NCBI GenBank assembly: GCA_963770565.1
Contig: CAVYQE010000011.1
Coordinates: 448,001 to 512,000 of the forward strand
DNA from: an uncultured Actinomycetota bacterium
Lineage (GTDB): Bacteria; Actinomycetota; Actinomycetes; JAFAQI01
Length of the DNA: 64,000 nt
Direction: 5' to 3'
Made by a program: the position numbers and the translations under genes. Below, piece by piece: positions 41,825 to 58,746 of this stretch (its first letter is position 1; each line of letters starts with the position of its first letter). The notes beneath the pieces are model-generated. The model was not told the DNA's origin. It saw nothing but the letters and a program-made list of their open reading frames with translations, and made no database searches.

Positions 41825-42946
41825 ATGACCCGACGGACTGAGCCACCGTTCCGCGCCGACCACGTCGGTAGCCTGCTCCGACCTCAGCGGTTGATGCAGG
41901 CCAGAGCCCAGCGGGCCGACGGCACGATCTCCGGTGACGAGTTGCGTGCGGCCGAGGACAGCGCGATCCGCGATGTCGTGGCGATGCAGCGCGACGTCGG
42001 TCTTCAGTCCGCGACGGATGGTGAGTTCCGTCGTACTGCATGGCATATGGACTTCATCTATGCGCTCGACGGGGTGACGCAAGCCGACGAGAAGCTTCAC
42101 GTGCAGTTCTTCAACGAAGGCGGCACGATCGACTTCGCACCCGCCGCGCTGCGGATCGCCGACCGGATCCGGCTCGGGGAGACGATCTTTGCCGACCATT
42201 TCGTCTTCCTGAAGGAACAGGTCGGCCCCGGAGTGACGCCGAAGCTGACGATCCCGTCGCCGAGCATGGTGCACTATCGAGGCGGTCGGGCCGCGATCGA
42301 TGAGACCGTCTATCCCGACCTCGAGGAGTTCTGGGACGATCTCACCGCGGCGTACGCCGATGAGGTCCGCCGACTGGGCGAGCTCGGTTGTACCTACCTG
42401 CAGCTCGACGACACCAGCCTGGCCTATCTCAACGACCCGCGACAGCGAGAGCTGATCGCCTCGCTCGGCGGCGACCGCGAGCATCAGCACGAGCTGTACA
42501 TCCGCAACCTGAATCGGGTGATCGCGGCCCGGCCGCCGGGGATGCGGATCACTACCCACATGTGTCGCGGCAACTTCCAGTCGTCGTGGGCGGCCGAGGG
42601 GAGCTACGACTTCGTCGCCGAGGCGCTGTTCGGCCAACTCGACGTCGATGGCTTCTTCCTCGAGTACGACGATGCTCGCTCAGGCGGGTTCGAGCCGTTG
42701 CGGTACGTCCCCTCGGGAAAGTACGTAGTCCTCGGCCTGGTCACCACAAAGCGCGGCGTCCTGGAGCACAAGGACGACCTGAAGCGACGAATCGACGAAG
42801 CCGCCAAGGTCGTACCGCTTGAGCAGCTGTGCTTGTCGCCGCAGTGCGGGTTCTCCTCGACAGTCGAGGGCAACACGCTTAGCTACGACGAGGAGGTAGC
42901 CAAGCTCAGCCTGATCGTCGAAACCGCCGCTGAAGTCTGGTCCTAG
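41825..42946 (+). CDS. Cobalamin-independent methionine synthase-like protein (C-terminal domain only, YxjG/H-like)
   Basis: RADHVGSLLRP, TDGEFRR, THMCRGN, FLEYD, LSPQCGFSST Zn ligands. Confidence 0.88.
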   Translation: MTRRTEPPFRADHVGSLLRPQRLMQARAQRADGTISGDELRAAEDSAIRDVVAMQRDVGLQSATDGEFRRTAWHMDFIYALDGVTQADEKLHVQFFNEGGTIDFAPAALRIADRIRLGETIFADHFVFLKEQVGPGVTPKLTIPSPSMVHYRGGRAAIDETVYPDLEEFWDDLTAAYADEVRRLGELGCTYLQLDDTSLAYLNDPRQRELIASLGGDREHQHELYIRNLNRVIAARPPGMRITTHMCRGNFQSSWAAEGSYDFVAEALFGQLDVDGFFLEYDDARSGGFEPLRYVPSGKYVVLGLVTTKRGVLEHKDDLKRRIDEAAKVVPLEQLCLSPQCGFSSTVEGNTLSYDEEVAKLSLIVETAAEVWS

Positions 42947-42987
42947 CGGGGTCGTGATTCGACCGCCAGCTCGCAGCACTTCAGGAC

Positions 42988-43557
42988 TCAGTTGGAGGGG
43001 GTGGTGCGGTGGATGTTGGTGCAGGGGACGGTCGGGTTGCAGCTGACCGAGTCGACGCCGTTGATGTTGACCAGCCGCTGCACCAGGTCGTTGCGCTCGA
43101 TCAACGTCGCGGTTCCGACCAGCACCATGCGGTACGACGCCGGAGTCTGGGACCTCGAGACCGAGGTCCAGCAGGTGTAGAGGCGCTGGAACTCCTGGTA
43201 TGCCTCGTCCTGCGACTCGTAGTAGACCTTGTGCACCAGCGGGTCGGAGTGCAGGGTCGCGGCGAGCTGCGCGACCTGCGCCTTGCTGGCCGAGGTCGAG
43301 ATGAAGACCGAGACGTCGACGTGGCCGACCCACGGCGAGGCCCGGCCGACGGTCGAGCCGCTCACGGTGCTCGGGCAGGCGCTCGGCGTCGCGACCGGCA
43401 GCTGCAGGAACTTCGCGAGGTCGGGCGGGGACTCGCCGCTCGGCGAGGACAGTGCCGATGGGCTGGAGCCGGACCCGCCGCACCCGGCCGTGACGGCCAG
43501 GACTGCGATGAGCACGAAAATGGCGCGGCGCAAACGGACCAGGGTGGAGCCGGTCAC
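42988..43557 (-). CDS. Lipoprotein with a stand-alone FtsX extracellular-like domain
   Basis: Lipobox VTAGC; VSVFI...DPLVHKVYYESQDEAYQEF...TPASYRMVL...GVDSV resembles the FtsX ECD. Confidence 0.65.
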   Translation of the reverse strand: MTGSTLVRLRRAIFVLIAVLAVTAGCGGSGSSPSALSSPSGESPPDLAKFLQLPVATPSACPSTVSGSTVGRASPWVGHVDVSVFISTSASKAQVAQLAATLHSDPLVHKVYYESQDEAYQEFQRLYTCWTSVSRSQTPASYRMVLVGTATLIERNDLVQRLVNINGVDSVSCNPTVPCTNIHRTTPSN

Positions 43558-43661
43558 CGGCGCCGGATCAGGCGGAGCGCTGCGTTGCCGAGGAACACTA
43601 CCCACCACACGAGTCCGGTCAGGAAGACGACCGCAAGGACGAGCAAGGCGATGTAGCGCAC
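43554..43661 (-). CDS. Small single-TM protein (35 aa)
   Basis: MRYIALLVLAVVFLTGLVWWVVFLGNAALRLIRRR; GTGA-coupled to the lipoprotein gene. Confidence 0.45.
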   Translation of the reverse strand: MRYIALLVLAVVFLTGLVWWVVFLGNAALRLIRRR

Positions 43662-43828
43662 GTCCAAGAACCTATCCGGGCGCTTCTGAAACGCGCATGA
43701 GACGCCGGGAAACCTGGCCCCGGTGCTGGTACTCGTGTGACAGATGGGGCACACTGGGGGGCGCACACGCTCGTCCTGTCGAGTCGGGGCCGCTGGGGAA
43801 GGCGATTCACGACACGACGGAGGTCACG

Positions 43829-44320
43829 GTGAGCGCTCGAGGTGTGCTGTTCGTGCATTCCTGCCCGCCTGCGGTGCGCCCGCACGTCGAATGGGCGATC
43901 GCGGGTGTCCTCGGCGTACCCGTGCGCCTGGACTGGCTCGATCAGCCGATCCAGCCGGGCTGCCTTCGGGCCCAGTCGGGTTGGCGCGGTCCCAGCGGTA
44001 CGGCGGGGCGGATCGCCGCGTCGTTGCGGGGCTGGCCGTTGATCCGGGCCGAGGTCACCGAGGAGCCCAGCGACGGGTGCGACGGCGAGCGGTACGCGAT
44101 GACCCCCGACCTCGGCGTGTTCCGGTCGGCGATGAGCGCGAACGGCGACGTGCTGGTCCAGGAGGACCGGCTCCGCTCGGTCCTGGCCGAGGCGGGCGAC
44201 TCGCCATCCCTTCAGCACGGCTTGCAGCGGCTGCTCGGGGCGCCGTGGGACGAGGAGCTCGAACCGTATCGCTGCGCCGGCGACGGCACCCCGGTCCGCT
44301 GGCTGAGCGCGGCGGTCTGA
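43829..44320 (+). CDS. DUF3145 family protein
   Basis: RGVLFVHSCPPAVRPHVEWA, EVTEEPS.GCDGERY..TPDLG, LGAPWDEELEPYR.AGDG.PVRWL; GGAGG SD. Confidence 0.9.
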   Translation: MSARGVLFVHSCPPAVRPHVEWAIAGVLGVPVRLDWLDQPIQPGCLRAQSGWRGPSGTAGRIAASLRGWPLIRAEVTEEPSDGCDGERYAMTPDLGVFRSAMSANGDVLVQEDRLRSVLAEAGDSPSLQHGLQRLLGAPWDEELEPYRCAGDGTPVRWLSAAV

Positions 44321-44338
44321 GCCGGCGACGCGGTCCGC

Positions 44339-44344
44339 TACAGT
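44339..44344 (+). promoter_or_regulatory. Putative -10 element for the retron transcript
   Basis: TACAGT (TANNNT) 8 nt upstream of the 5' inverted-repeat arm at 44353. Confidence 0.4.
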
Positions 44345-44352
44345 CCGCGCGT

Positions 44353-44510
44353 GCGGCGGCGCGCGACTGAGCACGTCGAGGGGATCCTCGACCGCTCCGG
44401 GGCAACCCCGGGGCAGACCAATCGCGTCACGCAGGGCATCGCACGTGTCGGTTTGCGCTCCACGCAACTGCGCACGCGCACAGCGGGGCTGGTCAGCCGC
44501 GTGCCGCCGC
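44353..44510 (+). ncRNA. Putative retron msr-msd non-coding RNA
   Basis: 18-nt terminal inverted repeats 44353-44370/44493-44510 (16 WC pairs, 1 GU, 1 mismatch); G44371 in AGC context; hairpins 44375-44392 and 44394-44414; longer imperfect hairpin ~44441-44479; directly upstream of a retron-type RT. Confidence 0.72.
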
Positions 44511-44517
44511 CCGACCG

Positions 44518-45849
44518 GTGACCAGGCCGAGGACCGCAGCGGCCGTCGCCGTCAGCGCCGCGTTTCTTGACGGACCCTGGACGACGGCCGCGGAGCTCGC
44601 CCGCCGTGGCGCGGAGGCGATCGACGTCTCTCCGCGCCGGCTCGGGCCGACCGCCCGTGCGGTCCTCCGGGCCTACCAGGCTCCGCCGCGGGACCGGCCG
44701 CGCGAGCTCGCCTCCTTCGTCCTGACCCTGCCGTCGTACGAACGGCTGTGGCGACGAGGTCGACGGCCACAGGTCCGGCGCTACGCAATGCCCACTGTGG
44801 CGATGGCGCCGATGCGTTGGCACGTCCCGCCGATCGACTCGATGGCGGACCTCGCGACCTGGGCGGACCTCAGCGCCGCGCACCTCGACTGGTACGCCGA
44901 TGTGCGGTCGCTGGAGCGCGGCGCGCCGGCGGCGATGCGGCACTACGACCGCACCTGGAGCTACAACCGGCGCGGGCGAGTGCGGTTGTTGGAGCAACCC
45001 CGCCCGCGGCTGAAGGCGCTGCAGCGCCGGTTGCTGCACGAGATTCTGGACCAGGTGCCGGCCCACGATGCCGCACACGGGTTCGTGACCGGCCGGTCGG
45101 TCCGTTCCTTCGCGGCGCCGCACGGCGGTCGCGACGTCGTCATCCGCCTGGACCTGACCGCGTTCTTCGCGACCATCTCGGCCGGCCGGGTCTTCGGCGT
45201 GTTCCGCTCGATCGGCTACGCCGAGCCGGTCGCGCATTGCCTGACGGGGATCACGACCACGGTGCTGCCGCTGGCTGATCGCCGGCTGGTCCCGCCGGCG
45301 TTGCGGGACGACGACCTGGACGCGCGACGCCGGCTGCTCGAGCACCTCGCCCGTCCGCACCTGCCGCAGGGCTCGCCCACCTCGCCAACCCTCGCCAACC
45401 TGGTGGCTTACCGCTTGGACACCCGGCTGGCTGGTCTCGCCCGCGCGGCCGACGCGACCTACACCCGGTACGCCGACGACCTCGCGCTCTCGCTGCACGG
45501 CCTGGACGCCGCCCGGCGGGCCCGGCGGCTGGTCGACACCGTCCGTGCCGTCGTCCGCGAAGAGGGCTTCCGGGTCAACGATGCCAAGACCCGGATCGCC
45601 ACCCGCGGCCAGCGCCAGCTGCTCTGCGGGATCGTGGTGAACGACCGGCCCGGCGTGCTGAGACCGGAGCGCGACGAGCTGCGGGCGCTTCTCCACAACT
45701 GTCAGCAGCACGGACCCCCGTCGCAGAACCGCAACGGGCACAACGACTTTCGCGCACACCTGCTCGGCCGGATCGCGTGGATGTCATCGGTGAATCCGGT
45801 TCAGGGCGCCCGGCTGCGGCTGCAGTTCGACCAGATCACCGGCTGGTGA
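44518..45849 (+). CDS. Retron-type reverse transcriptase (start uncertain)
   Basis: LKALQRRLL, AAHGF, region-X-like FAAPH, DLTAFF, LPQGSPTSPTLANL, YTRYADDLALS, GFRVNDAKT, LCGIVVN, retron-like C-terminus; no maturase/endonuclease or Cas1 domain seen. Confidence 0.88.
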   Translation: MTRPRTAAAVAVSAAFLDGPWTTAAELARRGAEAIDVSPRRLGPTARAVLRAYQAPPRDRPRELASFVLTLPSYERLWRRGRRPQVRRYAMPTVAMAPMRWHVPPIDSMADLATWADLSAAHLDWYADVRSLERGAPAAMRHYDRTWSYNRRGRVRLLEQPRPRLKALQRRLLHEILDQVPAHDAAHGFVTGRSVRSFAAPHGGRDVVIRLDLTAFFATISAGRVFGVFRSIGYAEPVAHCLTGITTTVLPLADRRLVPPALRDDDLDARRRLLEHLARPHLPQGSPTSPTLANLVAYRLDTRLAGLARAADATYTRYADDLALSLHGLDAARRARRLVDTVRAVVREEGFRVNDAKTRIATRGQRQLLCGIVVNDRPGVLRPERDELRALLHNCQQHGPPSQNRNGHNDFRAHLLGRIAWMSSVNPVQGARLRLQFDQITGW

Positions 45850-45856
45850 ACGCGCG

Positions 45857-47119
45857 CTACGGATCGAGCCGCACCCGGACGTCGCCCTCGTCGGGTCGGA
45901 CCAACGCTGCCCAGCCGAGCGGGACGCGCAACGAGCGGTTCGGGATTGCTGCCCGCACGGTGAACCGCGCGAGCCGCCGCCGACCTTGTTCGATCACCAC
46001 CGCGGGCCGTCGCCGGAACTCCGCGGTGCGCAGGATCAGCCCGCCCGGCAGGTCGGCTGCCAACGGCGAGTCGATCGGACCGACCCGGCCCGGCGAGGCC
46101 CACCGCAGCGGCGACTCGACCACGATCGCGACCCCGCTCGGCTCGAGCGCACCGGACGCAGCGAGAAGGCGGCGGGCCAGGCCGGCGCCGACGGCCGCTC
46201 CGCGCATTGCCGCGACGTCCGCGGTCTCGGCCGGGTGCACCAGGTTGCCGGCCGCATACAACGCCTCGACACTGCACCGACCGGCAAGGTCGACGACCGG
46301 GCCGCGCGACGCGACGTCGACGGCGGCGCCGGCCGATCGGGCCAGCTCGTGGTCGGGGATCCAGTCGCCGGTGAAGACGACGGTGTCGACGCCGAGCGTC
46401 GAGGTCCGGCCGTCGGCGTGATTCACGAGGTCGACCGCGTGTACGCGTCCGTGGCCACGGATCGCAGCGACATCGGTGTCCGTCAACAGCGGGACCCGCA
46501 GGCCGCGCCGGGTCACCGCGGCGAAACCGGCGCACGACTGGTGGCGGGGCAGGTCGGTCACCATGGCGACGGTGCGGACGCCCGCTTCGCGCAACGTCAG
46601 GACGGCCGAGTACGACACGTGCTCAGCCCCGACCACGACGGCCCGCTCGCCGACCGGCAACCCGTGGAGATGCGACCACTGCTGCAGCTGGCCGGTCGTG
46701 AAGACGCCGTCGCCGCGGTCGCCGGGCACCAATCGGGCGCCGCGTGGCCGCTCGCGCGCCCCGGTCGCGAGGACGATCGCGTCGGCCGCCACTGTGCGCA
46801 CCCCGCTGGGCGAGGTGAGCGTCAGCGCGCCGGCGGAGGCCCAGCCGGTCGCCATCGTCTCGGTCTCGATCCGTACGCCGGCGTCCTCCGCCATCCGCAC
46901 CAGCCGGTCGGCGTACCGGGGTCCGCGAAGCGATCGGTGCAGGTCACGCAGGCCGAAGCCGGTGTGGTCGCAGTGCCGGGGAACTCCGCCGGCCGCCTGC
47001 TCGCGCTCGACCACGAGTACGTCGCGCACGCCCCCGACCGCTAGCGCTCGCGCCGCCGCCAGCCCGGCCGGGCCGCCGCCGACGACCACGACCTGGTGTC
47101 GGCATCCGGTCGCGCTCAC
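45857..47119 (-). CDS. NAD(P)/FAD-dependent pyridine nucleotide-disulfide oxidoreductase
   Basis: VVGGGPAGLAAA, GGVPRHCDHTGFG, LATGARER, FTGDWIPDHEL, AAGNLVHPAETAD. Confidence 0.85.
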   Translation of the reverse strand: MSATGCRHQVVVVGGGPAGLAAARALAVGGVRDVLVVEREQAAGGVPRHCDHTGFGLRDLHRSLRGPRYADRLVRMAEDAGVRIETETMATGWASAGALTLTSPSGVRTVAADAIVLATGARERPRGARLVPGDRGDGVFTTGQLQQWSHLHGLPVGERAVVVGAEHVSYSAVLTLREAGVRTVAMVTDLPRHQSCAGFAAVTRRGLRVPLLTDTDVAAIRGHGRVHAVDLVNHADGRTSTLGVDTVVFTGDWIPDHELARSAGAAVDVASRGPVVDLAGRCSVEALYAAGNLVHPAETADVAAMRGAAVGAGLARRLLAASGALEPSGVAIVVESPLRWASPGRVGPIDSPLAADLPGGLILRTAEFRRRPAVVIEQGRRRLARFTVRAAIPNRSLRVPLGWAALVRPDEGDVRVRLDP

Positions 47120-48531
47120 GACAAGCCCCGCCACGTCGATCGCGCGGCCGCGAGTGCCGCGGCCACCTCCGCACCGCAGTAGAAGCCCTGGCAGCGGCCG
47201 TTCGAGGCCCGGGTCCGGCGGGCCAGACCGGCCCGGTCGACCGGCGGGAGCGGGGAGGCGAGGGCATCGCGCAGCTCGCCGCGGCTGACCCGTTCGCAGA
47301 AGCAGACGATCCGGCCGTACTCCGGATCTGCGGCGACGGTCTCGGCCGTCGTGGCCGGTCGCGGGAAGGCTTCGCCGAGGTTCGGCAGGCGCGGCGGTGC
47401 GGGCAGGTCGGCGCGCTCGGCCACGGGCAGCCCGGCGGCGCCGAGCAACCCGGCGACGTGCTCGGCGATGGCCATCGATGCGCTGAGGCCGGTCGAGCGG
47501 ATCCCGCCGACGCAGACGTAGCGGAGGGCGGCGTCGCAGCGGATCTGGTAGTCCCGGTGCTCGGTCGCCGCCCGCAGTCCGGAGTAGGTGCTGGTGACCT
47601 CCTCGGCGGCCAACGCCGGCACGATCGCGGCGCCCGCTGCCACCAGCGAGCGGAGCCCTTCGGCCGTGGTCGCGGTGTCGGTCTTGTCGGCAAGGTCCTC
47701 GGCGGTCGGTCCGACCAGCACGTTGCCGTAGACGGTCGGGCTGATCAGCACGCCCTTCGTCGTCCCGGTCGGGATCGGCAGGATGATCGACGACACCAGC
47801 CGGCGCGCCTGCTTGTCCATGACGACGAGCTGGCCGCGGCGGGGCGTGACGGTGAAGCTCGTCCCGCCGAACATCCGGTCGATCTCGTCGCTGCGCAGGC
47901 CGGCCGCGTTGATCAGCCAGCCGGCGTGAACCGGTCCGGCCGACGTCGAGATCAAGTGCCCGCCGGCCGGGTCCGCTTCGACCCCGGTGACGGTCGTGGA
48001 GAGCCGCAACCGGACGCCGGCCGCCACCGCCTCGGTCGCGTAGGCGAGCGTCGTGCTCCACGGGCAGATAATCGACTCGTCGGGCACTCGCAGCGCACCG
48101 AGCGCTCCGGGCGCAAGGTGCGGCTCCCTGCGGTAGAGCTCGTCCGCGTCGATCAGTTCGGCGGCCGGGTAGTCGTTGGCCCGGGCCTTGTCGAGCAGAC
48201 CGGGAAGCGCTGCCTGCTGCTCCGGAGTCCAGGCCACGACGACGGCGCCGGTGCGCTCGACGGCGATGCCGGTCGCTTCGGCGTACCCGCCGAGCAGGTG
48301 GTGCCCGGTGCGGACCAGTTGCGCCTCGAGGCTGCCGACCGGGGCGTCGAACCCGGTGTGCAGGATCGCGGTGTTGGCCTTGCTGGTGCCGTCGCCGACG
48401 TCGTTGCGGGCATCGATCACGACGGCGGTCAGGTCGCTTCGGCCGATCCGCCTGGCGATTGCGGCGCCGACCACCCCGGCCCCGATGATCGCGATGTCGA
48501 AGCGGTCGGCCGGCCCGGATCCGGCGCTCAC
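47116..48531 (-). CDS. Glycerol-3-phosphate dehydrogenase-like FAD oxidoreductase with C-terminal BFD-like [2Fe-2S] domain
   Basis: IIGAGVVG, GTSKANTAILHTGFDA, GPTAED, GIRSTGLSAS, CFCERVS...GRCQGFYC. Confidence 0.85.
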   Translation of the reverse strand: MSAGSGPADRFDIAIIGAGVVGAAIARRIGRSDLTAVVIDARNDVGDGTSKANTAILHTGFDAPVGSLEAQLVRTGHHLLGGYAEATGIAVERTGAVVVAWTPEQQAALPGLLDKARANDYPAAELIDADELYRREPHLAPGALGALRVPDESIICPWSTTLAYATEAVAAGVRLRLSTTVTGVEADPAGGHLISTSAGPVHAGWLINAAGLRSDEIDRMFGGTSFTVTPRRGQLVVMDKQARRLVSSIILPIPTGTTKGVLISPTVYGNVLVGPTAEDLADKTDTATTAEGLRSLVAAGAAIVPALAAEEVTSTYSGLRAATEHRDYQIRCDAALRYVCVGGIRSTGLSASMAIAEHVAGLLGAAGLPVAERADLPAPPRLPNLGEAFPRPATTAETVAADPEYGRIVCFCERVSRGELRDALASPLPPVDRAGLARRTRASNGRCQGFYCGAEVAAALAAARSTWRGLS

Positions 48532-49985
48532 GTCGACGCGGCGCCCGCGCCCGCGGCCGCGATGACCCGGGCGATCGCGGCCTCCATGCCGGCGAGTCTG
48601 GCCTGCGCCTCGTCCGCGCTGATCATCGGCTCGTAGCGTTCGCCGCCGGTGACCGCCGCCGCCCGGCCCGGCGCGAGCCCGTTGCGGGCCAGCTGGGCGA
48701 CGCCGAGGGCGGTCGCATGCGGCGAGGTGAAGACCTCGACCGGAGCCTGCAGCAGGTCGGCCTGGGTCTGCATCAGCAGTCGCGACCGGGTGAGTCCGCC
48801 GTCGACCCGCAACGTCCCGATCGATCCGCCCAGGTCGGCGGCTGCGGCGTGCGCCAACAGGGCGACCTGGCCGGCAATCCCGTCGACCGCCGCGCGCACC
48901 ACATGAGCGCTGGTCGTGCCGAGCGTCAGGCCCTCCAACGACGCGCGGGCATCGGGCGCCCAGTACGGCGCACCGAGGCCGGCCAGCGCCGGGACGCACA
49001 CCACGCCGCCGGCATCGGGAACGCTCGCGCCGATCCGGTCGACATCGGCCGGCGCCGCGATCAGGCCGAGCCGGATCAGCCAGTCCACGATCGATCCGAC
49101 GGTGTAGAGCTGGCCATCGAGGCAGTAGGCGACCGACCCGCCGTCGACCCAGCCGACCGATGCCGACAGGCCGTGGGTCGAGCGCTTCGCCGTCGGCCCG
49201 GCGTTCGCGAGCAGGAACGCACCGGTGCCGTAGGTGCACTTGGAGTCGCCGGTCTGCAGGCAGCCCTCGCCGTACAACGCGGCCTGCTGGTCGACCGCCA
49301 GGCCGGTCACCGGCAGCGTCGGACCGAAGGCGTCCGTCGTCCCGACCGTGGTCGTGCAGGCGACGATCTCTGGAAGCTCAGCCGGGTCGACCCCGAAGAG
49401 CCCGCACGCCTCGGGCGACCACTGCCGCCGGTCGAGATCCATCAGCGCACTGCGCGACGCCGTGCTCACGTCGGTCACGAACGCCCCGGTCAGTCGGTGC
49501 AACAGCCACGAGTCGGTGGTCGTCACCACGCCCTCGCGGGTCACGTGCTCGCGCAGCCAGACCACCTTCGGTCCGACGAAGTACGGGTCGAGCGGAAGCC
49601 CGGTCAGCTCGGCCAGCCGGTCGGCGGCGGGGGCAAGGGCGGTGCAGACACCCGCTGACCGGCGGTCCTGCCACGACAGCGCGGGCGCCAGCGGCGCGCC
49701 GGACCCGCGATCCCACGCCATGACCGTCTCGCCCTGGTTGGCGAACCCGATCGCCACCACCTCGCCGCCGGCCTGGGCGAGCGCCGCCCGCCCGGCGGTC
49801 ACGATCGAGTCGAAGAGCTCGGCCGGATCCTGCTCGACGCCGCCCTCACCCACCGAGACCGGCTGCACCGGCGCCTGCGCGGTCGCCAGCACCGACCCGT
49901 CCGGGCCGACCATCAGCGCCTTCGTCGACGACGTGCCCTGGTCGATCGCGAGGATGTTGCCGTCGCGCATCGACGCGTCGGTCAT
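48528..49985 (-). CDS. FGGY family carbohydrate kinase (glycerol kinase-like)
   Basis: AIDQGTSSTK, ANQGET, WQDRRS, DQQAALYG, KCTYGTGAF, LRVDGG. Confidence 0.9.
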   Translation of the reverse strand: MTDASMRDGNILAIDQGTSSTKALMVGPDGSVLATAQAPVQPVSVGEGGVEQDPAELFDSIVTAGRAALAQAGGEVVAIGFANQGETVMAWDRGSGAPLAPALSWQDRRSAGVCTALAPAADRLAELTGLPLDPYFVGPKVVWLREHVTREGVVTTTDSWLLHRLTGAFVTDVSTASRSALMDLDRRQWSPEACGLFGVDPAELPEIVACTTTVGTTDAFGPTLPVTGLAVDQQAALYGEGCLQTGDSKCTYGTGAFLLANAGPTAKRSTHGLSASVGWVDGGSVAYCLDGQLYTVGSIVDWLIRLGLIAAPADVDRIGASVPDAGGVVCVPALAGLGAPYWAPDARASLEGLTLGTTSAHVVRAAVDGIAGQVALLAHAAAADLGGSIGTLRVDGGLTRSRLLMQTQADLLQAPVEVFTSPHATALGVAQLARNGLAPGRAAAVTGGERYEPMISADEAQARLAGMEAAIARVIAAAGAGAAST

Positions 49986-55922: not shown

Positions 55923-56016
55923 CGACGCGGCGCGAAAAATCTTTGCCCGGTCCTGTCCACCCCGGTGGGCCCTCGGGCGTTGGACGGGTGTCCGTCGTCG
56001 ACGAAGGGTGACTCAG

Positions 56017-58746
56017 ATGTCCGCACGCGCTCGTCGGCCGCTGGCCGGCCGGATCGTTCGCACCTGGCTCGGCATGACTGCACTGGTCATGTTCGGAGTC
56101 GCGCCACAGCTCGCGGCCATGGCGAGCGCTTCGCCGGTGGCCGCCGCGGCGTCGGCCGGCGTACCGCTGTGCTTCGGGCACAAGGCGACGATCGTCGGTA
56201 CGTCGAAGGACGACGACATCATCGGAACGCCCGGCAACGACGTGATCGTGGCGCTGGGCAGTGCGGACAGCGTGTTCGGCGGGGACGGCAACGACCTGAT
56301 CTGTGGTGGTAACGGTGACGACACGATCCATGGTGGCAACGGCAACGACAAGATCGACGGTGGCGCAGGCGACGACCAGATCTTCGGCGACGACGGGGCG
56401 GACCTGATCCTCGGCGGGGACGGCCAGGACTTCCTCGACGGCGGCGTGGGCAACGACCGGATCCGCGGCGGGGCCGGCGACGACAATATCCAAGGCGACA
56501 GCGGCAACGACCGCATCACCGGTGGAGACGGCAACGACAACATCGACGGCGGTCTTGGCAACGACGTACTAACCGGCGGCAACGGCCGGGACGAGCTCGG
56601 TGGAAGTCACGGCAACGACGTCATCAACGGCGGTGCGGGCGACGACGACATCAATGGCGACAACGGCACCGACACCATCAACGGTGGCGACGGCGACGAC
56701 TTCGTGTCCGGCGGCAACGGCCGGGACACCATCAACGGTGACGCAGGCAACGATGACCTGAGTGGCGACATCGGCCAGGACGTCATCAACGGCGGTGCGG
56801 GTAACGACTCGATCGACGGCGGTGACGGAGTCGACCAGCTCTCCGGCGGACCTGGCGACGACACCATCCAGGGCAATGACACCTGTGAGTTCTGCCGGCT
56901 CGCGGACGTGCCGACACCGTCGAACAACACGATCGATGGCGGCCCGGGGTCCGACACGGTGGTCCTCATCCGCAACATCAACGAACCGACCGGGCTCAAC
57001 GTCAATCTCGGCACCGGTACGGCGACGGGTGACGGCACGGACAGCCTCGTCGGCATCGAGAACATCGACGCGGACAGCAACGTCAGCAACACACTGATCG
57101 GCGATGCCGGTGACAACACCTTCCATTCCGGCGACGGCGACGATGTCGAGCAGGGGCTCGGCGGGGACGACGTGTTCGTCGCCTCGCCCGGCAACGACAC
57201 GATCGACGGCGGGGACGGCTCGGACACGATCTCCTATGCGGACCAGTTCGTGTCGGGTGGCGCCTTCGTCAACCTGGCGGTCGGGATCTCGCGAGGCGTC
57301 TTCGACCAGGCGACGAGCACCGACACCTTGACGTCGATCGAGAACGCGACCGGATCCAACCAGTCCGACACGTTGATCGGAGACGACGGCCCCAACACGA
57401 TCAGCGGCGGCGAGGGCAACGACGTCATCCGTGGCGAGGGCGGCGACGACGTCTTGCGGGGTGACGAGGGCATCGACCACATCGACGGCGGCGACGGAGA
57501 CGACCTCATCGACGGCGCCGACCCGTTCGAGCGGGCCCACAACACCGCCACAGCGGGCGACGTCGCGGTCTTCACCTCGGCCACGTCGGGCGTGGATGTC
57601 AACCTGACCACCGGGACCGCCACCGGCCAGGGCAACGACACCCTGGTCAGCATCCAGGACGTGGTCGGCTCGGTGTTCGACGACACGTTGATCGGTGACG
57701 ACAACGCCAACCGGCTCAGCGGTCAACCGGGCAACGACATCATCGACGGGATGGGCGGGAACGACGTCCTGGTCGGCGGCGACGGCGACGACGCGTTTGA
57801 CGGCGGTGACGGCACCGACCTGATCACGTTCAACGGGTCGCCCAACCCGGTGGACGTGGACCTCGGGGCCGGCACCATCACCGGCGACGGCAACGACACG
57901 GTGACCAATGTCGAGGACATTCGCGGATCGATCTTCGATGACACCATCGTGGGCGACGACCTGCCCAACGTCCTGATCGGCGGGGCCGGCAACGACACCC
58001 TCGACGGTGCGGGTGGCGACGACGTCCTCGAGGGGAAGACCGGGAACGACACCTTCGACGGTGGCGATGGCGACGACAAGATCTATCCGTCCACCGGCAA
58101 CGACACCGTCGATGGCGGGCTGGGCAATGACCTGTTCGCGGCGTCTCCGGGCAACGACTCGTTCACCGGGGGAGGCGGGGAGGACACCCTCGACGAGACC
58201 AAGGCGCCGGCCGCGATCAATGCAGATCTCCCGGACGGCGTGGTCACCGGTGCAGACACCGACACGGTCTCGAGCGTCTCGGACATCATCGGTACCCGCT
58301 TCGACGACGTACTGATCGGGGACGATACCGACAACGTCCTCACCGGCGGGCCGGGCTCGGACGAGCTGGAAGGAAACGGTGGTGACGACACCCTGATCGG
58401 TGACGCCGGCGCCGACTTCCTCGACGGTGGCGACGGGACCGACACGGTCAGCTTCGTCGACGCACCGAACGGCGTCTCGGTCGACCTGAGTACTGGCGCA
58501 GCCGCGCACGACGGCGGCGACACGTTGGTCGAGGACGAGAACATCATCGGGTCGAACTTCAGCGACCAGCTGCGCGGCGACGACAACCCCAACGTCATCG
58601 AGGGTGGTTTGGGCGATGACACGCTTCAGGGGCTCGGCGGCGACGACACGCTCGACGGCGGTCCGGGCGACGACATCGTCGACGGCGGCGACGGCAACGA
58701 CACCTGCACCGGCGAGCACCTGTTCAACTGCGAGGTCACGACCTGA
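56017..58746 (+). CDS. Secreted RTX/hemolysin-type calcium-binding repeat protein
   Basis: Signal peptide, CFGHKATIVGT module, dozens of GGxGxD nonapeptides, repeated V.V(D/N)L..G...G.G.DT..IE modules. Confidence 0.9.
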   Translation: MSARARRPLAGRIVRTWLGMTALVMFGVAPQLAAMASASPVAAAASAGVPLCFGHKATIVGTSKDDDIIGTPGNDVIVALGSADSVFGGDGNDLICGGNGDDTIHGGNGNDKIDGGAGDDQIFGDDGADLILGGDGQDFLDGGVGNDRIRGGAGDDNIQGDSGNDRITGGDGNDNIDGGLGNDVLTGGNGRDELGGSHGNDVINGGAGDDDINGDNGTDTINGGDGDDFVSGGNGRDTINGDAGNDDLSGDIGQDVINGGAGNDSIDGGDGVDQLSGGPGDDTIQGNDTCEFCRLADVPTPSNNTIDGGPGSDTVVLIRNINEPTGLNVNLGTGTATGDGTDSLVGIENIDADSNVSNTLIGDAGDNTFHSGDGDDVEQGLGGDDVFVASPGNDTIDGGDGSDTISYADQFVSGGAFVNLAVGISRGVFDQATSTDTLTSIENATGSNQSDTLIGDDGPNTISGGEGNDVIRGEGGDDVLRGDEGIDHIDGGDGDDLIDGADPFERAHNTATAGDVAVFTSATSGVDVNLTTGTATGQGNDTLVSIQDVVGSVFDDTLIGDDNANRLSGQPGNDIIDGMGGNDVLVGGDGDDAFDGGDGTDLITFNGSPNPVDVDLGAGTITGDGNDTVTNVEDIRGSIFDDTIVGDDLPNVLIGGAGNDTLDGAGGDDVLEGKTGNDTFDGGDGDDKIYPSTGNDTVDGGLGNDLFAASPGNDSFTGGGGEDTLDETKAPAAINADLPDGVVTGADTDTVSSVSDIIGTRFDDVLIGDDTDNVLTGGPGSDELEGNGGDDTLIGDAGADFLDGGDGTDTVSFVDAPNGVSVDLSTGAAAHDGGDTLVEDENIIGSNFSDQLRGDDNPNVIEGGLGDDTLQGLGGDDTLDGGPGDDIVDGGDGNDTCTGEHLFNCEVTT

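Follow-up and report, generated by a model that had tools for sequence, protein, structure and literature searches.

The locus described here lies in a 64,000-nucleotide stretch of DNA from an uncultured Actinomycetota bacterium (contig CAVYQE010000011.1, positions 448,001 to 512,000), referred to below as the window, and consists of a reverse transcriptase (RT) gene directly preceded by a structured non-coding RNA (ncRNA). It is best explained as a self-contained, two-part retron of the clade 11 or outgroup group, about 1.5 kb in length (approximately 44321-45856), and we assign this reading a probability of roughly 0.6. The retron anatomy and the family assignment, taken on their own, are held with high confidence. 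The layout of a -10-like box, a 168-nt msr-msd RNA, and an abutting 443-aa RT recurs across the family. The parts of the cassette, including the presumed template for multicopy single-stranded DNA (msDNA), are as follows.

44340..44345, + strand: -10-like hexamer TACAGT, putative promoter of the ncRNA-RT transcript (family-anchored -10 search)
44348..44515, + strand: retron ncRNA (msr-msd), 168 nt (covariance model R1, 101.6 bits, E 2.4e-15)
44345..44370, + strand: a1 arm, terminal inverted repeat (inverted repeat I1)
44371, + strand: candidate branching (priming) G, right behind a1 (aligns with the conserved G of CCAAG/CCGAG)
44375..44392, + strand: msr hairpin 1, GUCGAGG-GGAU-CCUCGAC (minimum free energy (MFE) fold)
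44396..44413, + strand: msr hairpin 2, UCCGGGG-CAA-CCCCGgGG, the family signature (invariant GGGG/CCCC columns in 44 sequences)
44444..44476, + strand: msd hairpin, presumed msDNA template (helices 4-6 of the covariance model mapped onto the window)
44492 and 44493..44518, + strand: opposing G and a2 arm, respectively (sequence, inverted repeat, R1 mapping)
44518..45849, + strand: retron RT, 443 aa, GTG start (PADLOC, Pfam, structure matches)
44518..44757, + strand: N-terminal five-helix domain, RT residues 1-80, clade-specific (AlphaFold2 model, conservation)
44758..44973, + strand: linker (residues 81-108) and RT0-like region (residues 109-152), common to other retron RTs
45469..45480, + strand: catalytic YADD, residues 318-321 (invariant in 29 sequences; aligns with the YADD of Ec86)

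The open reading frame (ORF) of the RT begins at GTG 44518, the first start codon past the upstream stop, and all PADLOC matches listed for the protein (25 of 67) are retron RT models. The two best are RT_other (539.8 bits, E 1.9e-162, RT residues 5-441) and RT_outgroup (512.4 bits, E 2.5e-154, RT residues 8-441 against profile positions 5-406 of 407). The third model, RT_XIII, scores 304 bits, more than 200 bits below the top two, with an alignment that starts at residue 101, and RT_Ec107-like reaches only 181 bits. Pfam RVT_1 occupies RT residues 153-362 (E 8.8e-21). The NCBIfam model retron_St85_RT matches at E 2.6e-48; as this model covers a narrower family, the match stays under its curated cut-off. 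The top PDB matches, by sequence and by predicted fold, are all retron RTs, with the Ec86 RT first (E 9e-34 by sequence; Foldseek E 1.6e-20), and the AlphaFold2 model of the RT has a mean predicted local distance difference test score (pLDDT) of 90. By proxy of the PADLOC model match, the window RT would belong to clade 11 of retron RTs, since the SPIRE survey (mSystems 2026; PMC13712802) links the 'Outgroup' models to that clade. Membership among the defence-associated RTs (DRTs) was considered and rejected, as the NCBIfam Drt2 match (E 9e-9) falls far under its cut-off and DRT folds rank well below retron RTs. The RT is single-copy in the source genome. A hint of its expression was obtained from one 160-nt soil-metatranscriptome contig (run X16) identical to 45009-45168, inside the RT gene; this run belongs to the study that also yielded the best-matching DNA runs and is the one RNA run among the four public runs compared. 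No coverage of the ncRNA was seen in that run, where a contig depth of 2-5 shows neither expression nor silence.

The ncRNA was defined by comparison with related loci, of which 96 were collected (13 from species genomes, 80 from metagenomes, and 3 from relatives). An RNAalifold consensus from 44 aligned upstream regions contains 31 base pairs, 24 of them with compensatory change, and the covariance model R1 was built from this alignment. In the 64-kb window, the R1 match at 44348-44515 is the sole strong one. Across the collection R1 matches 89 of 96 loci, always directly upstream of the RT and on the same strand; the seven misses are six contigs with less than 160 nt upstream and one locus (L090) with a transposase gene upstream. 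Over 86 distinct sequences, pairing is preserved in 95.8% of cells, compared to 75.4% in shuffled sequences and 38-52% when the partners are slid, and both sides have changed in 27 of the 31 pairs. The support extends to individual helices: helix 1 (a1/a2) covaries in 12/12 pairs, helices 4-6 of the msd hairpin show both-side changes in 9/10 pairs, and helix 3, which is msr hairpin 2, is 99.7% paired. The region of msr hairpin 1 is of variable length and gap-rich in the family alignment. By this model, the RNAs of the 89 loci form one coherent family.

The window ncRNA retains all helices of the model and has an MFE of -101.2 kcal/mol (z -3.0). Its ends are formed by the inverted repeat I1, in which 44345-44373 pairs with 44490-44518 (29 nt, 79% complementary, arms 116 nt apart), and the last base of the a2 arm is the first base of the RT start codon. 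Related loci carry inverted-repeat arms at the same place with a different sequence; among the 64 loci with enough upstream DNA for the arm test, 46 exceeded the 95th percentile of shuffles. The locus thus displays a1/a2 repeats that enclose msr hairpins and an msd hairpin, together with two opposing G residues, which are the features of a retron RNA. By analogy with retron biology, G44371 is the candidate branching, or priming, residue. A scan of 42500-48500 against Rfam gave no match at E<=1. At L090 (L090:2863-5841), the RT match starts at residue 51 and has a DDE transposase on its upstream side and a PIN-like gene on its downstream side; this is probably a retron copy disrupted by an insertion sequence.

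Upstream of the RNA, 61 of 83 distinct related loci have a TANNNT hexamer that ends 2-5 nt ahead of the start of the ncRNA model. Across the family the consensus, cTGcTAtcaT, is an extended -10 element, and a -35 element is not conserved. The cassette thus comprises a likely promoter of its own, the ncRNA, and the RT. In most related loci the a2 arm ends at the RT start codon or within about 36 nt of it, and no Shine-Dalgarno sequence is evident around the RT GTG in the window. The a1/a2 stem may gate RT translation, or the two may be coupled.

Genes adjoining the RT were surveyed for a possible effector. Among 93 of the related loci, flanks of at least 1.5 kb were available upstream in 62, downstream in 60, and on both sides in 48. 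All-against-all clustering of neighbour ORFs revealed no recurrent partner gene adjoining the RT in the 96 loci, in agreement with the first-pass annotation of this DNA, which had proposed a two-part retron without an effector gene in cis. The largest cluster covers 8 of 96 loci at varying position and strand, and its one scanned member has an ABC-transporter ATPase domain. The second, from six loci, consists of short opposite-strand ORFs across the ncRNA and RT start that are probably spurious, and the clusters of five loci mostly reflect synteny inside Kineococcus or Rhodococcus. A Pfam scan was performed on 129 flanking ORFs (125 of the 136 nearest, plus 4 from loci L003 and L004; the 11 left out belong to near-duplicate Rhodococcus and Kineococcus loci). 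Most are housekeeping genes, such as DnaJ, UvrC, NadA, ketol-acid reductoisomerase, ribosomal protein L1, a class I Glu/Gln tRNA synthetase (Pfam tRNA-synt_1c), transporters, and kinases. The only mobile or defence-like ORFs among them are two of PIN type, one Uma2, one integrase, and one transposase, and 28 of the 129 have no Pfam family. When 37 unannotated or suspicious neighbours were scanned with PADLOC, none matched (0/37). The alternative that an effector had merely been lost at this one locus does not agree with these data, as the homologues also show no recurrent effector.

Fused effectors were sought in the RT proteins themselves. Among the best 120 homologues listed, lengths range from 353 to 505 aa and RVT_1 is the sole Pfam domain, and no fused form was found in the close RT family. 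Forms of 475-627 aa, considered as possible fusions, contain RVT_1 only and were rejected as probable over-called starts. At E<=1e-20 five long proteins (777-2215 aa) were recovered. Only one of them is close, an 830-aa protein with 62% identity across 39% of the query and no Pfam domain besides the RT. The remaining four show 33-37% identity, and three of these have a second Pfam family (PF12799 or PF22561). An adjacent effector gene or fused effector domain, as in the tripartite retron types I-XIII, was thus not found at the locus.

The RT has an N-terminal extension, which the first-pass annotation had put at about 140 aa before the RT core. The extension is real and its residues 1-80 are folded, but the truly extra part is shorter, about 95-113 aa, judging from where the Ec86 and Ec83 RTs align (Ec86 residue 59 corresponds to window residue 152, and Ec83 residue 14 to window residue 127). 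PADLOC alignments start at residue 101 for RT_XIII and at residue 81 for RT_III-A. Structure prediction of the extension by AlphaFold2 gave a confident five-helix bundle spanning residues 4-79 (predicted helices at residues 4-17, 24-35, 39-52, 60-69, and 72-79; pLDDT about 90), and confidence in the linker falls to a pLDDT of about 55 at residues 91-100. The data argue against an extension that is untranslated or not conserved. Measured against the copy in genome G003, residues 2-90 have a ratio of nonsynonymous to synonymous substitution rates (dN/dS) of 0.20, and the RT core has one of 0.16. When residues 1-150 were compared with 1.84 billion cluster representatives, 342 proteins matched at E<=1e-3, and the full-length proteins among them are RTs of about 440-460 aa that match at their N-terminus. 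Homologues at 49-87% identity span 88-100% of the RT, and their conserved residues start at L17 and W21. The gene call of the public collection (P0002) is 353 aa long, or 80% of the RT, and leaves off the first, conserved 90 residues (44518-44787).

The N-terminal domain is strongly basic and hydrophilic. Its isoelectric point (pI) exceeds 9 in 43 of 47 diverse relatives, with a median of 11.5, its median net charge is +7 per 85 residues, and its grand average of hydropathicity (GRAVY) is -0.33. In the same 47 relatives no N-terminal column is invariant and mean column identity is 34%. No family for the domain was found in Pfam or NCBIfam, and the best ESM Atlas score was 0.79, which is chance level. 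Fold searches with the domain were likewise negative: the best E values were 3.7 with Foldseek against the PDB and 1.0 against BFVD, and among the 48,161 chains compared by VIA-align the highest Z was 4.7, so that none reached 5. The nearest structural neighbours of residues 1-86, all under the noise level, were a 'BabyBass soluble domain' (Z 4.7), a circular bacteriocin, a saposin-like protein, and NK-lysin. The saposin-like and 'BabyBass' matches lie below the tool's stated noise level for helical bundles; they were treated as noise and are not evidence for a fold. The domain appears to be neither an enzyme nor a pore-former. A binding module is favored over a toxin because the domain is strongly basic, conserved, and helical without a significant fold match, and we put at about even odds the suggestion that it serves as an additional module for binding nucleic acids, with the ncRNA or msDNA as its ligand.

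The cassette lies between two genes that are outside the retron.

43829..44320, + strand: DUF3145 gene, 163 aa (Pfam PF11343, E 6e-66)
45857..47119, - strand: FAD/NAD(P) oxidoreductase, 420 aa, convergent (Pfam Pyr_redox_2)

These assignments agree with the first-pass annotation, which had named the upstream neighbour as the core gene DUF3145 and the downstream one as a convergent oxidoreductase close to the RT stop. DUF3145 was detected in 25/25 related genomes, or 24/24 without the unpublished genome G032, which gave weak partial matches only. The spacer from the RT stop to the end of the oxidoreductase ORF (45857, stop codon counted) is 7 bp, 45850-45856. The earlier statement that there is no room for an effector also holds, as the 197 bp upstream of the RT are occupied by the promoter-like box and the ncRNA. 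Mobility or defence families, which had been described as missing nearby, are indeed absent among 19 further ORFs within about 15 kb, whose Pfam matches are metabolic, transport, or other non-defence families, or none. PADLOC was run on four window proteins, and the RT was the sole defence-model match besides a Rossmann-motif match of the oxidoreductase at E 0.0078. The window DNA is high-GC and actinobacterial; the closest relative in public data is a metagenome-assembled genome that carries the label uncultured Frankiaceae.

Some further features of the surroundings were observed. Downstream, 45857-49985 holds the oxidoreductase, then a DAO-family FAD oxidoreductase with a BFD-like [2Fe-2S] domain, and an FGGY carbohydrate kinase, a run that looks like a glycerol or sugar-alcohol utilisation cluster. 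Divergent from DUF3145, at 42988-43608 on the - strand, is a 206-aa protein with an FtsX extracellular domain without the permease part; an FtsX-domain protein holds the same position beside DUF3145 in some relatives (tblastn). A 912-aa protein at 56008-58746 consists mostly of RTX calcium-binding nonapeptide repeats (HemolysinCabind, E 1e-100, 12 stretches).

Comparison with other genomes shows that the retron is variably present at this site. Two genomes of the same genus (G001 and G004) have an empty site, in which the DUF3145 stop and the oxidoreductase stop are about 30-80 bp apart with no RT between them, so that the 1.5-kb cassette is either cleanly present or cleanly absent as a whole at a single chromosomal site in the genus. 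In G003 the site is filled with an RT 88% identical to the window RT. No target-site duplication or att-like repeats were seen at the cassette borders in the alignment of filled and empty sites. In another genome, G012, the RT is located elsewhere, away from the DUF3145 site. At the order level, 3 of 16 genomes carry the RT at E<=1e-50. At the class level, 21 of 401 genomes do, spread over 11 of 163 genera, and each carrier genome has one copy. Related cassettes also occur in one Planctomycetota and one Myxococcota genome, and horizontal spread is therefore implied. In a different genus, at locus L004 (G006:C2:12474-16796), the RT is again downstream of DUF3145, about 970 bp away; the gap contains an opposite-strand 182-aa ORF with no Pfam or PADLOC match, and the right flank is a D-Ala-D-Ala carboxypeptidase. 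This arrangement could be an ancestral residence with rearrangement, or the outcome of repeated insertion near DUF3145.

A working scheme for the two-part retron can be drawn largely from retron biology. The transcript would fold with a1 paired to a2, the RT would bind the msr hairpins, including the invariant CCGGGG/CCCCGG hairpin, and synthesis would be primed from the 2'-OH of G44371. The msd hairpin would then be copied leftwards from about 44491 to yield msDNA of approximately 60-75 nt. More tentatively, the basic N-terminal domain may hold the ncRNA or msDNA and not act as a toxin, and the system may work without a dedicated toxin gene in cis, through the RT-msDNA particle or a host factor. 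A role in conflict, that is, against phages, is judged to have a little under an even chance; it fits better than a housekeeping role because the distribution is patchy and accessory. It is possible, and rather doubtful, that the RT with its basic N-terminal domain, together with the msDNA, is both sensor and output, with no need for a toxin protein. Such a toxin-free retron could sequester, or act as a decoy for, a phage or host nucleic-acid-binding protein, or it could switch DNA synthesis upon infection.

Several observations weigh against the two-part retron reading as a whole. The retron signature motifs, NAxxH and VTG as quoted in PMC13712802, are kept in part only: region X of the window RT reads FAAPH, in which A199 is nearly invariant and H202 invariant in the family, and region Y reads LCG, in which G371 is invariant and VTG is retained in some members. 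The window -10 box is without the TG of the family's extended -10 consensus, and a generic scan of 43600-46100 for sigma-70 promoters and intrinsic terminators found none. Nucleic-acid binding by the N-terminal domain is argued only from its charge and absent enzyme-like features, and the whole RT is basic too (core median pI 11.2). The 160-nt contig is the sole hint of expression, RNA libraries can contain DNA, and the retron is otherwise known here from its sequence. The effector survey covered cis neighbours, and a partner encoded in trans was not searched for. Finally, the neighbourhood here and in most relatives is a housekeeping one without a defence island, and the locus is syntenic within Kineococcus (5 loci) and within Rhodococcus (5 loci); both observations would fit a domesticated role and a defence role equally well.

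Such domestication, in which the msDNA or the RT serves regulation, stress response, or DNA metabolism, has been speculated for clade 11 by Mestre et al. (PMC7736814). The single copy per genome and purifying selection on the RT are consistent with it, as are the housekeeping neighbours and the syntenic positions. The low frequency of the cassette in the order and class, its presence or absence at one site within the window's own genus, and the horizontal spread implied by the Planctomycetota and Myxococcota cassettes argue in the other direction, and we regard domestication as unlikely. A three-part system with its effector encoded elsewhere, either by a dedicated distant gene or as a conserved host protein, would account for a cassette without an effector, given that characterised retrons need one according to published abstracts. 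Described retron effectors, however, adjoin the RT or are fused to it (Mestre Table 1), and this cassette has its own promoter and turns up on its own in many unrelated surroundings and phyla. Through transfers of this kind, a dedicated partner at a distance would be difficult to retain; a conserved host factor would be unaffected by this. A trans partner of either kind seems rather unlikely.

The N-terminal domain could instead be a fused effector, for example a membrane-active or protein-binding toxin, that the msDNA keeps inactive until infection releases or activates it. The domain occurs in this RT clade alone, always N-terminal to the RT, and is conserved under purifying selection in a clade without any other effector; RT fusions are known in types I-C, VII-A1, XI, and XII (Mestre Table 1), and the top, non-significant fold neighbours include saposin-like and membrane-active bundles (Z 3.4-4.7). 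A toxin is nonetheless hard to reconcile with only about 80 folded residues that are hydrophilic and very basic, with the lack of an invariant column and the 34% mean column identity in the 47 relatives, and with the lack of a significant match in the PDB or BFVD, where the best Z of 4.7 is under the noise level. The known fused retron effectors are, moreover, C-terminal enzymes (Mestre Table 1). A fused effector is accordingly considered improbable. Least favored is a decaying remnant, a retron that has lost its effector and is being eliminated. Its absence from most relatives and the lack of an effector would be expected of a remnant, yet the ORF is intact with a dN/dS of 0.16-0.20 against the G003 copy, YADD is invariant, the ncRNA has all its helices, and the two-part layout is common to the whole family, which makes decay very improbable.

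The two-part retron, if it does act without a toxin, is of interest because the mechanistically understood retrons all use a toxin partner, and the clade 11 and Ec107-like groups stand as catalogued and unexplained exceptions. The locus provides a well-bounded 1.5-kb test article with a promoter, an ncRNA, an RT, and a natural empty site in sister genomes. Its ncRNA model is defined, a candidate G for priming has been located, and its N-terminal domain can be separated. The role of an effector-less retron is therefore directly testable with it. Retron-based editing in high-GC actinobacteria could also benefit from a compact two-part retron that functions there.

Among known systems, clade 11 is the closest. 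Mestre et al. 2020 (PMC7736814) divided retron RTs into 11 clades, of which clade 11 is essentially restricted to Actinobacteria and has two or three ncRNA consensus structures. Stand-alone msr-msd-RT cassettes were reported for it and for one branch of clade 2, and the authors speculated that such retrons may be domesticated. The SPIRE survey (PMC13712802) distinguished clade11-A (71), clade11-B (39, enriched in Mycobacteriales), and a residual group (9), used the covariance models OutgroupA and OutgroupB, reported no recurrent accessory domain, and rated clade 11 low for novelty. The suggestion in the first-pass annotation that this is an undescribed system therefore fails, because the group is already catalogued in print in these two studies. 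The window locus resembles clade 11 in the near full-length RT_outgroup and RT_other matches, N-terminal extension included, in the msr-msd RNA directly upstream without a recurrent accessory gene, and in a distribution centred on Actinobacteria with some spread to other phyla; nothing that defines the clade differs. The word 'extension' does not occur in the main text of Mestre et al., nor does 'N-terminal extension' in the text of PMC13712802, and 'clade 11', 'outgroup', and 'Actinobacteria' do not occur in the main text of the Khan et al. retron census preprint. No experimental study of clade 11 or actinobacterial retrons was found in the literature searched. Relative to the available passages of the published work, the basic five-helix N-terminal domain, the fixed extended -10 box, and the empty-site comparison appear to be new.

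Retron-Eco1 (Ec86, type II-A3) is the best solved match by RT fold and sequence, and its ncRNA likewise has a1/a2 arms, msr hairpins, an msd hairpin, and two opposing G residues. It differs in having a nucleoside deoxyribosyltransferase-like effector (Mestre Table 1), which is missing from the window locus. The Ec86 RT, at 320 aa, is without the first ~95 residues of the window RT, which in turn carries an insert of about 35 residues between residues 245 and 281 and only partly keeps NAxxH and VTG. Type XIII (Mx162, Mx65, Ne144; clade 10) is the second-best PADLOC family (RT_XIII). Myxobacterial retron RTs also have long N-termini; residues 1-100 of the window RT, however, are not aligned to the RT_XIII profile. 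Signs of vertical inheritance were also reported for type XIII (Mestre et al.), and its linked SWIM/winged-helix and HEAT/ARM-repeat proteins have no counterpart at the window locus. The Ec107-like group of clade 2 is the other group with stand-alone cassettes and no recurrent accessory module in the published surveys; it is a separate RT clade, host-associated and found mostly in Bacillota and Gammaproteobacteria. Outside the retrons, DRT9 and DRT2 (UG/Abi class) similarly combine an RT with an ncRNA, have no separate toxin gene, and use DNA as output, but they are protein-primed or make concatemers in place of branched msDNA. If the proposed reading is correct, a toxin-free two-part retron would be the counterpart of these DNA-synthesis-based DRT systems.

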